Positions 745 through 45,335 of a DNA stretch of 64,000 nucleotides are shown piece after piece. Both the position numbers and the translations under genes were made by a program. How positions within the stretch are numbered: the stretch's first letter is position 1; the number at the start of each line of letters is the position of its first letter. This DNA comes from a virus: the UHGV virus genome UHGV-0125821; one strand, 5' to 3'. The notes under the pieces are model-generated. The model saw only the letters and a list, made by a program, of their open reading frames with translations, did no database searches and was not told the DNA's origin.

Positions 745-820
745 GCCGGTTTAGCTCAGTTGGTAGAGCGCCTGCCTTGTAAGCAGGATGTCAGCGGTTC
801 GAGTCCGTTAACCGGCACCA
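745..820 (+). tRNA. tRNA-Thr (anticodon TGT)
   Basis: acceptor GCCGGTT/AACCGGC, D-loop AGTTGGTA, anticodon loop CTTGTAA, T-loop TTCGAGT, encoded CCA; 2 nt after tRNA-Asn. Confidence 0.85.
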
Positions 821-828
821 ACACAACA

Positions 829-902
829 GGTAAGGGTATTTTGCGACGTCGGAGATCGCCGTGCTTGGCAGAGGGTTCGAATCCCTACGAAGTACCCTTA
901 CC
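829..902 (+). ncRNA. tRNA-like element that does not fold as a canonical tRNA
   Basis: 10-bp terminal stem GGTAAGGGTA/TACCCTTACC enclosing GGTTCGAATCC T-arm-like motif; no cloverleaf register fits. Confidence 0.3.
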
Positions 903-1241
903 GTTGTGATGAAGTGCAGCTCTTTGAAGCAACCAGAAGATAAGCATCTGGCTTCACAACATAAACCGCAGGAACGACCAATAAACGGTAGTCCGTATGG
1001 AGAACACCCCGTTGAGGAAGAGGCCTGGCCGGAACCGTAACCGGCACTACAACGTTAAGAACACTGGCGTAACGGGGTCATATCCCAATCTATGAATAAA
1101 TGTTGCGTTGCAGCGTGACAACCAGTGTTCTCAACATTGTGGTGAATGCACAGGCTGATGTGCCGCAACTACAGTAGTGCGCGCTTTGCGGGGCTTGCTA
1201 CAACCCTGTGTCGGAGTTCAGCACCGACCATCACAATCACT

Positions 1242-1328
1242 GGAGAGTAGGGAGCATGGTGCTCAAACGGTCTTGAAAACCGTCCCATTGCGCAAGCGAT
1301 GATGGTTCGATTCCATTACTCTCCGCCA
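1242..1328 (+). tRNA. class-II tRNA-like, Ser(TGA)-like anticodon arm, atypical D-arm
   Basis: acceptor GGAGAGT/ACTCTCC plus G plus CCA; anticodon arm ACGGT-CTTGAAA-ACCGT; variable hairpin with GCAA loop; D-loop only 5 nt. Confidence 0.4.
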
Positions 1329-1591
1329 GTGCAACGTTAAGAGTATTTGGCTAATTAAGCGAATGCCGGAAGCAGAACCGGATCACCAAATGCGTACAGG
1401 CGTCATCGCCGCCCAGCCAGCCAAGTGCTCTTACCATTGCGGTGAATGCGGTTAAGCGCACGCGGAACAGTTAAAACAATCCTCCTTAGTGGTTAAGTCA
1501 AACATCCCGGCGTTAATTGTTAACTGGTTAACGTCACCTGGAGGCACCAGGCACCGCAGCTTTTTTATTCGTTAAATAATGGAGTGAGAGG

Positions 1592-2845: not shown

Positions 2846-3300
2846 TATTTGGTTGTAACACGGCGTCTGGCACATGCGTCGTTAGCGGTCTGGTGACGTT
2901 AAAAGGGGTATCTTTGACTCTTGCTTAGGCAAACGGACCAGGTAGCCGGAATGTGCAAGCCCCGGTAACAGTGGCGGACCGAGGACTCACCATCCTGGCG
3001 ATTCGGTGTGACAGCCGGAAGAGCACGGCGCACAACAGGAAAAGGCGTTTAATTAGCGTGAGCGCCGTTTCCGTTGTGGTAATTGCGGCTATGCGCTCGT
3101 GACGAAGCCATTTTCATTCACTACGTTCTGATAAGTGACGTCGCCAGGAGTGGCTAACCTGGCAGGTGGAGGCACCACCGCCACAACTCCTTTCAATTCA
3201 TCATATAGCCGCTCAGGCTGTACCCCTTAATTAATACGAAGTTACGACATCACTACCGGTACTTCCGGGGGATAGTCGCGCGTGTAAAAAAGGAGACGTT

Positions 3301-29527: not shown

Positions 29528-30713
29528 TTTCCTGAAAAACCAGGACGGGCGCTATATCACTGACGGCCTGTCCTCTAAGGACTTCACGCGTTTATTCGAG
29601 CTTATCAGGAAAGAACAAACCCGTAAGCGCCGACAAGCTCACCGGACGCTGACGCCAGGTAGACTGAGGAACAAATCCGCCGAAGATATTCTCAAGTTAG
29701 GGAAGAAAAAAGGCGGCACGTTCTTCACGCGAGACGACCTGAAAGGTTTCGAAAAGCTACGGAGTAAAACGCGCGAAAAATACGACAGCAAGACGGCTGG
29801 CATCACATACGCCCAGCTGGTGGCATCCAGCCAGGCAATCGATATTAAGCGTGCAAATAACGCCGTGGATGACGGATCTGGTATCAAAAGAGCTACACCC
29901 GTATCTCTTCGCCACAATGTGATTAATATCCGCGTAGAAGCATCGGATATATCCGTCCACCAGCACCATATCGTCCGGATACGCTTTGAAGAATGGGATC
30001 AGATGGTTGATGACATCGCAGAAGACGATAAATCAGCTCTCAAAATCACTAAATCACTGTGCGCCGGGCGAGTGTCTTTCGATTGTGACTGTGGTCGTCA
30101 TCAATACTGGTATCGTTACATCGCCACTGCGGGTAACTTTGCCCTGGCACCGCCAAAAGAATACGCCTATCCAAAAGTTCGCAACCCGAAGCTGCAAGGC
30201 GTCGCCTGTAAACACGTGATCCACTCAATGACGCGGTTACAGTCCGCCAGTTGGCAAATGAGTATTGCTCGTGCGCTACAAAAGGCTGCAACGCAAATTG
30301 CATTTGGTGATGATCGCCGCCGTACAACCAAACACTTCTCAAAAGAAGACGAGAAGGAGTTTAATCGCAATCGTAGCAGTAAAACGAACGTTGAAGCCGC
30401 CAAACGCGAATGGAGGCTCTATCAGAAGCGCCAGGCAGCTTTAAGTACAAAACTGGCAAAGGACAACGGCAAGATCGACAAACTACGTGACCAATTGACC
30501 AAGGCCAGAAAGTTGTCAGATGCACAGAAAAAACGGGCGGCAGCAAAAGAAGCGGCCTTGCAACGTGAGAAACAGAAAAACAAGGAGCTTCAGCAACGCC
30601 TTGCCGATCAGTTCGCACTGAAGAAGCAGGCGTTCATTGATGCGCTTGTCATGGCTGGAACACCACCAGCACAAGCTGAAAAAATGTTCATGGAGTATGT
30701 AAAAAAAGCATAA
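29520..30713 (+). CDS. SWIM-type zinc-finger protein with basic coiled-coil C-terminus
   Basis: FDCDCGRHQ ... GVACKHVIH (CxC-Xn-CxH). Confidence 0.65.
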   Translation: MPDFLKNQDGRYITDGLSSKDFTRLFELIRKEQTRKRRQAHRTLTPGRLRNKSAEDILKLGKKKGGTFFTRDDLKGFEKLRSKTREKYDSKTAGITYAQLVASSQAIDIKRANNAVDDGSGIKRATPVSLRHNVINIRVEASDISVHQHHIVRIRFEEWDQMVDDIAEDDKSALKITKSLCAGRVSFDCDCGRHQYWYRYIATAGNFALAPPKEYAYPKVRNPKLQGVACKHVIHSMTRLQSASWQMSIARALQKAATQIAFGDDRRRTTKHFSKEDEKEFNRNRSSKTNVEAAKREWRLYQKRQAALSTKLAKDNGKIDKLRDQLTKARKLSDAQKKRAAAKEAALQREKQKNKELQQRLADQFALKKQAFIDALVMAGTPPAQAEKMFMEYVKKA

Positions 30714-44723: not shown

Positions 44724-44889
44724 TTACTCCCCTTGTTTAGTGCCAGAAGACACGCCAGTGCTGTTAAACAAGTATCCGACATACGCTGAACAGTTATTCA
44801 GCACGATCGACGAATGCAACCAACGAAACGCACTGAATAACCAAAGAAACAGGGAGATTTGGGAAGGGAAGGGGGATCAAGGCTCCTGA
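44557..44889 (+). CDS. o-spanin (Rz1-like lipoprotein) overlapping the i-spanin gene
   Basis: SD GGGAGGA; lipobox LSGC; Pro-rich; starts inside Rz-like ORF in +1 frame. Confidence 0.6.
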   Translation: MKSLALKMRYAVLGLTMCVCLMTLSGCSGNGQKPSTSVPVKITVEATSRPQANLIDYSPCLVPEDTPVLLNKYPTYAEQLFSTIDECNQRNALNNQRNREIWEGKGDQGS

Positions 44890-45335
44890 AGCCAGATGTC
44901 CTGGCTGTCAGCTTCTTCGAAACCGTGACAGACGTTAAAGTCACTCAAACGATACTGACGCTGACGGCCCCTATTTCGCTCATGCCAATGCATATATCCA
45001 CCAGCAAATGCCAGCGGACAATCGCTATAGTCTATGTAACCAATACCATTCCCCAAACGTGCTTCGCGCGCACCAGCTTTCCAGGACAGTAGAAAAGAGT
45101 CACGATCCGCCAGCATAACAACAAAATCGTCCGGATCTCCGATACAGTGAAGAATACCAGCCTTACATAACTGCTTGAGCGCTTTTGACTGGCTCAGGAT
45201 GTCTTCTCCGTAATACTGAAAACAATCATCAACAACAGCGGGATAGCCTGTCGGGGGATTCAGGCTGGCTGGTATAGCTGACGCGATCGCCAGCATTAAG
45301 CGATATTGTGTTTTTGATGGGTTAACGTGACTCAT
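44877..45335 (-). CDS. hypothetical protein
   Basis: 152-aa ORF. Confidence 0.55.
   Translation of the reverse strand: MSHVNPSKTQYRLMLAIASAIPASLNPPTGYPAVVDDCFQYYGEDILSQSKALKQLCKAGILHCIGDPDDFVVMLADRDSFLLSWKAGAREARLGNGIGYIDYSDCPLAFAGGYMHWHERNRGRQRQYRLSDFNVCHGFEEADSQDIWLQEP

Follow-up and report, generated by a model that had tools for sequence, protein, structure and literature searches.

The window analysed here, a 64,000-nt stretch of the virus genome UHGV-0125821, carries near its start two tRNA-like elements that an earlier note, made from the letters alone, had described as aberrant: element 1, which we now delimit to 822–908, and element 2, at 1242–1328. The setting is the C1-repressor-controlled leader of the ban operon of a P1/D6-type phage-plasmid, a long, mostly untranslated transcript in which tRNAs, small structured RNAs and a few genes follow one another in series. 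Judged from its sequence, element 2 is a tRNA-Ser(UGA) of the described (8/4) allo-type, conserved and not decaying. Element 1 is no tRNA gene but a copy of a long-stem hairpin cassette (~20–21 bp, with a bulged A). Both are conserved far above the chance level. With somewhat better than even confidence, we favor a joint reading in which the ban leader carries a functional (8/4) tRNA-Ser(UGA) and, as element 1, a hairpin cassette with an interior under selection and a stem that is processed by RNase III.

The tRNA is summarized as follows:

1242–1328, + strand: element 2, an (8/4)-type tRNA-Ser(UGA) with a compact D hairpin, an 18-nt variable arm, G73 and an encoded CCA (ARAGORN, Rfam and homologues)

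ARAGORN calls a tRNA-Ser(tga) at 1242–1328 with its anticodon at 1274–1276, and we could locate every part that had been listed for it from the sequence: acceptor stem, encoded CCA, UGA anticodon arm, variable hairpin, T arm and tiny D arm. The acceptor stem pairs 1242–1249 with 1317–1324 (8/8 Watson-Crick) and is followed by the discriminator G1325 and the CCA at 1326–1328. The T arm (1302–1316) has a 4-bp stem, ATGG/CCAT, and the acceptor/T branch comprises 12 bp, split 8/4 rather than 7/5. The D hairpin at 1252–1264 reads GAGCA-UGG-UGCUC (alternatively, 4 bp with a 5-nt loop), and the flanking A and C of the 5-bp anticodon stem (ACGGU/ACCGU) are unable to pair. This architecture is that of the (8/4) tRNA-Ser/allo-tRNA class (Mukai et al., Nucleic Acids Res 2016/2017, PMC5389517), whose defining traits are the 8/4 split of the acceptor branch, a D stem-loop like that of tRNA-Sec, a long variable arm, and either G73 or U73; the class is known from bacteriophages and was discovered as false positives of the tRNA-Sec model. 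Element 2 shares with that class the 8-bp acceptor and 4-bp T stem, the tRNA-Sec-like D arm with its long stem and tiny loop, the long variable arm together with G73 and a serine anticodon, a location in a phage tRNA cluster and a near miss of the tRNA-Sec model.

The homologues support this assignment. Phage D6 has the same 87-nt gene, annotated as tRNA-Ser with a remark in the record that tRNAscan-SE gives it no amino acid. P7 and several of the sampled rV5-like records carry a homologue without annotation, and in phage Cyrano the homologue lies directly after tRNA-Thr; the short D arm is common to D6, P7, Cyrano and the rV5-like phages. The version in rV5-like Vequintaviruses is 91 nt long and 85–91% identical, with the same tiny D arm, one more D-loop base (the D loop has 3 nt in element 2 vs 4 nt in the rV5-like and T5-like relatives) and three more variable-arm bases. 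A wider set, assembled from GenBank phages and a pattern scan of IMG/VR in which U65 was held fixed, contains 38 distinct tRNAs of this architecture, from rV5-like phages, T5-like Klebsiella phages, a Streptomyces phage, Acinetobacter Saclayviruses, Justusliebigvirus, D6, P7 and others. Their D stems come in 25 different sequences, each of them complementary, with 4–6 bp and a 3–4-nt loop that usually ends in GG; the variable arms are 15–21 nt long, 30 have G and 8 have U as the discriminator, and the anticodons are serine only (UGA in 30). That the same architecture recurs in 38 phage tRNA-Ser genes with 25 complementary D stems indicates that element 2 is conserved. The suggestion of a decaying pseudogene therefore falls, the short D arm being a conserved hallmark of described (8/4) tRNA-Ser, and the alternative suggestion of a non-canonical tRNA proves apt.

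Standard models give a less clear answer. Element 2 scores under threshold with the general tRNA model of Rfam, and its best Rfam match is to tRNA-Sec (RF01852), at 45.1 bits against a gathering score of 47. Together with the missing amino acid assignment in the D6 record and the non-serine anticodons of many allo-tRNAs (PMC7609411), this could suggest a non-functional or non-serine tRNA-like RNA, such as a tRNA-Sec relative or a suppressor. We consider this very improbable. A compact D hairpin, a long variable arm and an extended acceptor stem are common to element 2 and tRNA-Sec, but the anticodon is UGA rather than UCA, the acceptor/T branch has 12 bp rather than 13, and the score stays below the gathering score; no selB/selA context was seen, although none was looked for. 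In addition, 38/38 relatives combine a serine anticodon, a long variable arm and G73 or U73, which is the identity set of seryl-tRNA synthetase (SerRS).

Allo-tRNAs become serylated, and the E. coli translation system makes use of them (PMC7609411); we infer that the host SerRS would charge element 2 via its variable arm and G73. Across 47 open reading frames (ORFs) of the window, UCA, ACA and AUA are used at 11.9, 15.4 and 12.9 per 1000 codons, and they correspond to three phage tRNAs with the anticodons UGA, UGU and CAU. These values are well above E. coli averages. Since UCA is frequent in the phage genes, as are ACA and AUA for the companion tRNAs, element 2 would probably have the usual codon-supplementing role and help to decode UCA/UCN.

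Four observations weigh against our reading of element 2. The 8:65 pairing rests mostly on an invariant A8 and U65 (A:U in 35 of the 38 relatives and a single covarying G:C, with U65 fixed by the search pattern), although position 49, the other candidate partner opposite 65, can be G, A, C or U and hence appears unconstrained. The anticodon stem has 5 bp and not the longer stem of allo-tRNAs, a tendency of the class that we do not treat as excluding membership. The D6 copy has a C·U mismatch in its D stem, and P1 itself lacks this tRNA. Nearby in kind, the rV5-like phage Mangalyan has an irregular gene within its (8/4) tRNA-Ser cluster (L006 790–888): a 99-nt annotated tRNA-Lys to which ARAGORN gives a 4-base anticodon (atcc).

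Element 1 is built as follows:

822–908, + strand: element 1, the whole hairpin cassette (fold z, 6-sequence alignment, 34 variants)
844–860, + strand: interior block 1, CGACGUCGGAGAUCGCC (near-invariant in IMG/VR copies and in the 34 variants)
861–869, + strand: variable linker of the interior (9–12 nt in relatives; 14 sequences among the 34 variants)
870–887, + strand: interior block 2, AGAGGGUUCGAAUCCCUA, a T-arm-like hairpin (872–875/883–886) with the loop UUCGAAU (34 variants)

The earlier note had reported a perfect 10-bp terminal stem around a T-arm motif. The pairing of 829–838 (GGTAAGGGTA) with 893–902 (TACCCTTACC) is indeed perfect, and GGTTCGAATCC lies inside it at 874–884, but the true helix is longer: 15 bp including G·U (829–843/888–902), then the bulged A828, then a further 6 bp (822–827/903–908). 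Nor is this an acceptor stem. The minimum free energy (MFE) of the cassette is -42.1 kcal/mol (z = -5.0), and 0 of 200 shuffles fold as well. In a 6-sequence alignment the 20-pair helix is 97.5% paired, and at four pairs both partners have changed. In P7 and phage Ro157c2 the outer helix is retained through compensatory changes around a different interior, which is 20 nt shorter and lacks the T-arm motif. The T-arm version is found, at 86% identity, in an untranslated leader of the unrelated Enterobacter phage BUCT554, a Uetakevirus without tRNAs.

That no cloverleaf register fits element 1, as had been noticed at the outset, is borne out: ARAGORN reports no tRNA at its default thresholds or at 90% or 80% of them (at 70%, it returns only out-of-register junk calls), and an Rfam scan gives no tRNA (RF00005) match at E ≤ 10. 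We also rejected element 1 as a canonical tRNA because only 9–12 nt separate the D-like block from the T arm. Among other tRNA-like families, tmRNA, YrlA and C4 have no Rfam match on 822–908, and a weak YrlA match (19.9 bits) sits on the real tRNAs. Intact tRNAs were not found at this position in the relatives either: the P7 and Ro157c2 interior is unlike a tRNA, and Cyrano is without the element.

Two scans were made for the interior, one with the T-arm 19-mer fixed and the other with only the first block and the T loop fixed, and together they yielded 117 copies and 34 unique cassettes. Block 1 has the consensus CGAYGYCGGAGAUCGCC and changes only by C847→U (8 variants), U849→C (4 variants) and one G858→A. 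Block 2 is invariant save for one A887→C, even where only its loop was fixed in the search. The enclosing 15-bp helix, by comparison, shows at least two standard pair types beyond G·U wobble at 7/15 positions, and the same interior is found in four stem bases: GGTAAG.../...CTTxCC, AATGAGAGC/GCTCTCATT, GATGAGAGC/GCTCTCAAT and CGAGGAT/GTCCTCA. Invariant blocks within a covarying stem point to selection at the level of sequence on the interior and at the level of structure on the stem.

These patterns make it improbable that element 1 is a decaying tRNA pseudogene or an att-type recombination remnant with no function of its own, both of which had been proposed. Such an origin would suit its place in a tRNA cluster, its length (about that of a tRNA), the clear remnant of a tRNA-Thr 3′ end nearby at 1036–1048, and the 19-nt T-arm block, which is identical to the T arms of what seem, by eye, to be genuine tRNAs in three further phage contigs. 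However, the blocks stay near-invariant through the 34 variants and more than 100 copies while the stem changes and the linker takes 14 forms, which implies purifying selection rather than decay. Homology to tRNAs is also confined to the T arm, and the interior occurs in phages without nearby tRNA genes, such as BUCT554.

The presence of the 19-mer in apparent genuine tRNAs does imply that block 2 has a real T-arm sequence, and block 1 has the option of a D-arm-like hairpin (844–847/855–858) with a 7-nt, GG-containing loop. Of its substitutions, C847→U turns a C·A into a U–A with A855, and U849→C falls in the D-like loop and would break the end of a rival helix. A fold resembling the tRNA elbow, with a long helix, a D-like GG hairpin and a T arm but no anticodon arm, is plausible, as the T-arm-forced fold lies only ~1 kcal/mol above the MFE, but not proven, as both the MFE and the RNAalifold consensus prefer the rival helix (849–853/876–880), which destroys the T arm. 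It also counts against the elbow that the T arm and the D-like hairpin are too invariant to give covariation. A recurring tRNA-like theme among cassette interiors is supported by an excess of T-loop-like hairpins (4/36 interior classes vs 0.24 expected) and by an independent class (L059) that has a D-arm-like GCAT-ATCTGGGAA-ATGC and a T arm, GCGG-TTCGATT-CCGC, again with no anticodon arm. The idea of a tRNA mimic stands as a possibility for the interior (T arm plus GG-loop block) and not for the element as a whole, which is a hairpin cassette.

Element 1 belongs to a family that had been overlooked, with four copies in the window (822–908, 1045–1144, 1330–1441 and 3031–3078; fold z from -3.2 to -5.1) and a wide distribution that includes lambda. 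The shared design is CACAAC, a bulge, a long helix, and then GUUGUG. The other copies, and a tRNA remnant that precedes one of them, are:

1036–1048, + strand: remnant of the tRNA-Thr 3′ end, GTAACCGGCACTA, ahead of copy B (comparison with 808–820, the last ~14 nt of tRNA-Thr; repeat family D6)
1045–1144, + strand: cassette copy B, with the same long stem and a different interior that includes a GGG-UCAUAU-CCC hairpin (fold -41.0 kcal/mol, z = -5.1; repeat families D4 and D6)
1330–1441, + strand: cassette copy C, which begins 2 nt past the tRNA-Ser CCA (fold -40.4 kcal/mol, z = -3.2; lambda sequence)
3031–3078, + strand: cassette copy D, with the same stem and a minimal interior, 5′ of the ban homologue (fold -24.6 kcal/mol, z = -4.6; repeat families D3 and D7)

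The remnant and copy B look like a duplicated unit of tRNA-Thr 3′ end plus cassette from which the tRNA has since been lost. The interior of copy C contains a ~65-nt block (AATTAAGCGAATnCCGGAAGCAGAACCGGATCACCAAATGCGTACAGGCGTCATCGCCGCCCAGC, window 1349–1415) that is shared with the lambda late leader, so that a ban leader of the P1 type here contains late-leader sequence of lambda; in lambda itself (J02459 ~44,852–44,920; L371 ~453–521), this block comes after the cassette.

Scanning IMG/VR with a pattern for the base of the cassette helix found at least 120 loci, and the matches listed contain 78–83 unique cassettes, the number varying with the exact pattern; their interiors, 21–51 nt long, form at least 36 unrelated classes. 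At stem positions that the pattern does not fix, 97.6% of cells are paired vs 83.4% when partners are shuffled among cassettes (maximum of 500 shuffles, 86.6%), and four such positions show several pair types. The stems thus covary, while the interiors are unrelated between classes; structure is kept rather than sequence, which fits a reader of double-stranded RNA. Every cassette examined in context lies in an untranslated leader in the same direction as transcription. In lambdoid prophages it directly follows the tR′ terminator, in the interval from the Q antiterminator to the holin; other contexts include a site 3′ of a repressor gene and 5′ of yfdP, and the leaders of Uetakeviruses. The cassette of phage lambda, at 44,781–44,888, immediately follows the terminator (tR′) of the 6S RNA and lies under the hypothetical "orf-64". 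Cassettes often abut the 3′ CCA or the 5′ end of a tRNA. As candidate holders of whole tRNAs they were rejected, since no cassette found encloses an intact tRNA; a scan for longer interiors gave three, 0/3 with a tRNA.

Rfam has no family that covers the lambda late leader or element 1, no annotated feature lies under the cassette match in the RefSeq rows sampled, and a full-text literature search by cassette sequence strings gave no match. One version of the constant 3′ part is nevertheless present in at least 628 of 5,426 complete E. coli genomes (exact-word megablast, a lower bound). A scan of species-representative genomes returned mostly chance matches, and only Enterobacterales and probable lambda-DNA contamination passed a stem filter; real copies were found there in Serratia, Klebsiella, Citrobacter, Kluyvera, Pantoea, Pectobacterium, Rahnella and relatives. 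Identical lambda late-leader sequence also turned up in small contigs (L272, L276, L300, L312, L316, L350, L355) assigned to Pseudomonas, Psychrobacter, Algoriphagus, Chromatiales and others, most likely as lambda DNA contaminating these assemblies.

Several further features were noted in the flanks of cassettes. A common 3′ flank, GTGGTGA-AT-GCGC-AGGCTGAT-GCGC (e.g. L249 3519–3541; window 1139–1170), resembles the 5′ third of a tRNA and can be read as an acceptor strand joined by two linker bases to a D arm that has a GG loop. In BUCT554, a weak DicF-like match (22 bits, L005 2770–2818) lies in the same ~700-nt untranslated leader as the element 1-type cassette, echoing the dicF-like region upstream of the tRNAs in P1. 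Rfam isrJ (60 bits) matches the short RNA that runs from the late promoter to the terminator directly 5′ of a cassette (L199 2710–2786; L249 3375–3447), which suggests that IsrJ is the 6S-like PR′ transcript of a Gifsy-type prophage.

Inverted repeats around unrelated interiors, present in many copies in mosaic contexts, might instead act as DNA, either as a miniature inverted-repeat mobile element or as a recombination "linker" between phage modules. Near-identical arms do stand beside unrelated interiors, which suggests exchange by recombination, and one copy (L147) is a mismatched hybrid of two stem types. However, every copy placed in context is co-directional with its transcription unit and in an untranslated leader, and the G·U pairs and compensatory changes fit selection on an RNA helix; target-site duplications or an associated transposase were not seen, although they were not searched for systematically. 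Recombination may contribute to the mosaic pattern, but orientation bias and G·U-tolerant covariation favor RNA, and we give a purely DNA-level role little probability.

The covariation also bears on a second proposal, that the stem is a protein or antitermination site of the boxA/nut kind, bound by NusB/NusE or a phage factor, that protects the leader from Rho. With the boxA consensus as generally known, the commonest 3′ strand, GUGCUCUUUCC, contains the boxA core UGCUCUUU; a small hairpin, GCGCA-GGCUGA-UGCGC, often comes after that strand, and long untranslated leaders would suit anti-Rho protection. We dropped this reading, to which we now assign only a slim chance, because the boxA-like letters covary away: inner-stem variants read TGATCTTT, GCAGCTTT, TTTGGCTTT and GTTTCCTTT, with compensating changes in the 5′ strand of every one, the corresponding strand of element 1 is UACCCUUA, and the element 1 interior is found in differing stem bases such as AATGAGAGC/GCTCTCATT and CGAGGAT/GTCCTCA. 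Moreover, a boxA inside a 13–15-bp helix would not be single-stranded.

A constant stem around a variable interior also resembles the swapping of specificities in processed antisense or immunity RNAs. The CI RNA of P4 and the C4 RNA of P1/P7 are tRNA-like phage regulators processed by RNase P, and C4 of P1 acts as an antisense RNA. A C4 antisense RNA and an isrK-like RNA are present near 26 kb of the window, and element 1 shares with the C4/CI RNAs a small, leader-derived structure with a closing stem and a variable interior. On the other hand, no complementary target above chance was found: within the 64-kb window, complementarity to the element 1 interior reaches at most 10 nt, under the shuffle mean of 10.7, and for 31 interior classes the energies of the best duplexes with their own 2-kb flanks do not surpass those of shuffled interiors (mean z = -0.11; 3/31 below -2). 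The closing stem is also far longer than in C4/CI, there is no 3′ CCA, and, as noted above, Rfam finds no C4 match, so that an antisense role of this kind has only a slight probability. Two adjacent 12-nt complements to the interiors of copies B and C were seen at 30285–30311, inside a 397-aa ORF; they are within the shuffled range and are probably due to chance.

Finally, the P1 RefSeq record annotates the lipoprotein gene plp (125 aa) on the minus strand over this stretch, in which case the RNA structure would be incidental. This we regard as extremely improbable. In the window the ORF is split into a 49-aa and a 37-aa piece, it overlaps tRNA-Thr, neither D6 nor P7 has a gene annotated here, P7 and Ro157c2 differ by a 20-nt indel within it that breaks the frame, and cassette lengths differ by non-multiples of three. 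More generally, P1-annotated plp, and probably upl, seem unlikely to be real genes on the minus strand of window 791–1168, where the plp ORF overlaps structured RNA as well as the tRNA.

As for what reads the cassette, we consider RNase III processing of its stem to be the most likely mechanism, with about an even chance of being correct. A covarying ~20-bp helix between untranslated RNA units has the profile of an RNase III processing site, and the stem of element 1, 15 + 6 bp interrupted by a single bulge, amounts to some two turns of double-stranded RNA within a spacer that is transcribed but not translated. Throughout the family, the helices have a bulge and often a U·U mismatch, are free in sequence as long as pairing is kept, and lie between units of lytic-phase polycistronic transcripts. 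The host RNase III would cut the element 1 stem and separate the flanking tRNAs or mRNAs; this would free the tRNA-Thr trailer for 3′ trimming, part the downstream RNAs, and release the ~45-nt interior (the "cargo") as a small hairpin RNA. That interior might mimic a tRNA elbow, with the variable linker in place of the anticodon arm. The lambda Q-dependent late RNA is reported to be processed by RNase III in vivo (Daniels et al. 1988, cited in PMC7547250), at sites that may fall in the cassette hairpin. One point against our reading of element 1 is that P1 trnT, plp and upl are non-essential for plaque formation in a CRISPR interference screen (PMC10695390).

With the RNase III hairpins of the lambda late leader and the T7 early sites, element 1 shares an imperfect ~20-bp helix, with a bulge or mismatch, between untranslated polycistronic units, and the lambda late leader has a homologous cassette directly after tR′. 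Known RNase III sites have not been described as frames for swappable interiors of conserved sequence. Several tRNA-like domains without an anticodon arm are also known, including that of tmRNA and the bacterial Y RNA YrlA, and the T4 tRNA cluster encodes the stable "species 1/2" RNAs. Element 1 shares with these a T arm and a D-like GG loop on a long helix, the absence of an anticodon arm and a location among phage tRNAs; it differs from tmRNA and YrlA in having no Rfam match, a long helix at the position of the acceptor and no free CCA end, and a tertiary elbow is conjectural. A broader view, which we think unlikely, is that cassettes are a general phage "expression frame", with a helix that a host nuclease cuts to free swappable RNA cargos in lytic growth, and that the cargo of element 1 is a dedicated tRNA-elbow mimic. 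In that case, the mimic could titrate or decoy a tRNA-recognizing factor such as a tRNA-targeting defense nuclease, RNase P or a T-loop modifying enzyme.

The remaining features of the leader are:

667–742, + strand: canonical tRNA-Asn(GUU) (ARAGORN; Rfam tRNA 74.5 bits)
745–820, + strand: canonical tRNA-Thr(UGU) (ARAGORN; Rfam tRNA 74.9 bits), with a gap of 1 nt from its CCA to the element 1 cassette
1438–1558, + strand: STnc100/PasD-like structured RNA, sub-threshold, 3′ of cassette copy C (Rfam STnc100 39.5 bits vs a gathering score of 47)
2770–2845, + strand: tRNA with a CAU anticodon, annotated in P1 as tRNA-Ile2 (ARAGORN, Rfam and the P1 record)

The first 1.6 kb of the window is 97.5% identical to phage D6 and 93% to P7; identity to P1 is 99% but extends only as far as position 1235. 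In P1, the order at this leader is operator/promoter, dicF-like region, trnA, trnT, genes, trnI and ban, and the dicF-like region, 5′ of the tRNAs, corresponds to about 110–211 of the window. A D6-like Salmonella plasmid prophage has been reported with Asn, Thr, Ser and Met tRNAs (PMC6799933). Further downstream, the non-coding block of ~170 nt between the CAU tRNA and copy D (2860–3042) is 68% identical to the start of the BUCT554 leader (L005 2341–2512), and many cassettes have its 3′ end (…acggagcccata) as their upstream flank; the block may be another structured RNA and has no Rfam match. At ~3075–3185, 3′ of copy D and just 5′ of the ban homologue, an arrangement GGTGG…GGAGGCACCACCGCCAC is similar to the STnc100/PasD-like site.

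Element 2 is known biology, already annotated in D6, and its interest is mainly that standard models miss it. The (8/4) tRNA-Ser fold is common in well-known coliphages (rV5-like, T5-like, P7 and D6) and is not confined to metagenomic sequences, and its under-calling by standard tRNA models matters for inventories of phage tRNAs and for analyses of codon compensation. Element 1 offers a lead of modest novelty: a cassette family that is widespread and unannotated, probably of RNase III sites, with a conserved tRNA-arm-like interior in this instance. Many Enterobacterales phages, lambda and P1 among them, carry the family in their lytic-phase leaders. If the cassettes are only RNase III punctuation, the finding is an ordinary one. 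If they are processing frames for cargo RNAs, they would add an extra layer to how temperate phages package non-coding functions, and element 1 would offer a concrete, testable candidate for a tRNA-elbow mimic; and should cassettes prove to be a general frame for expressing such cargos, they would constitute a class of phage RNA unrecognized even in lambda.

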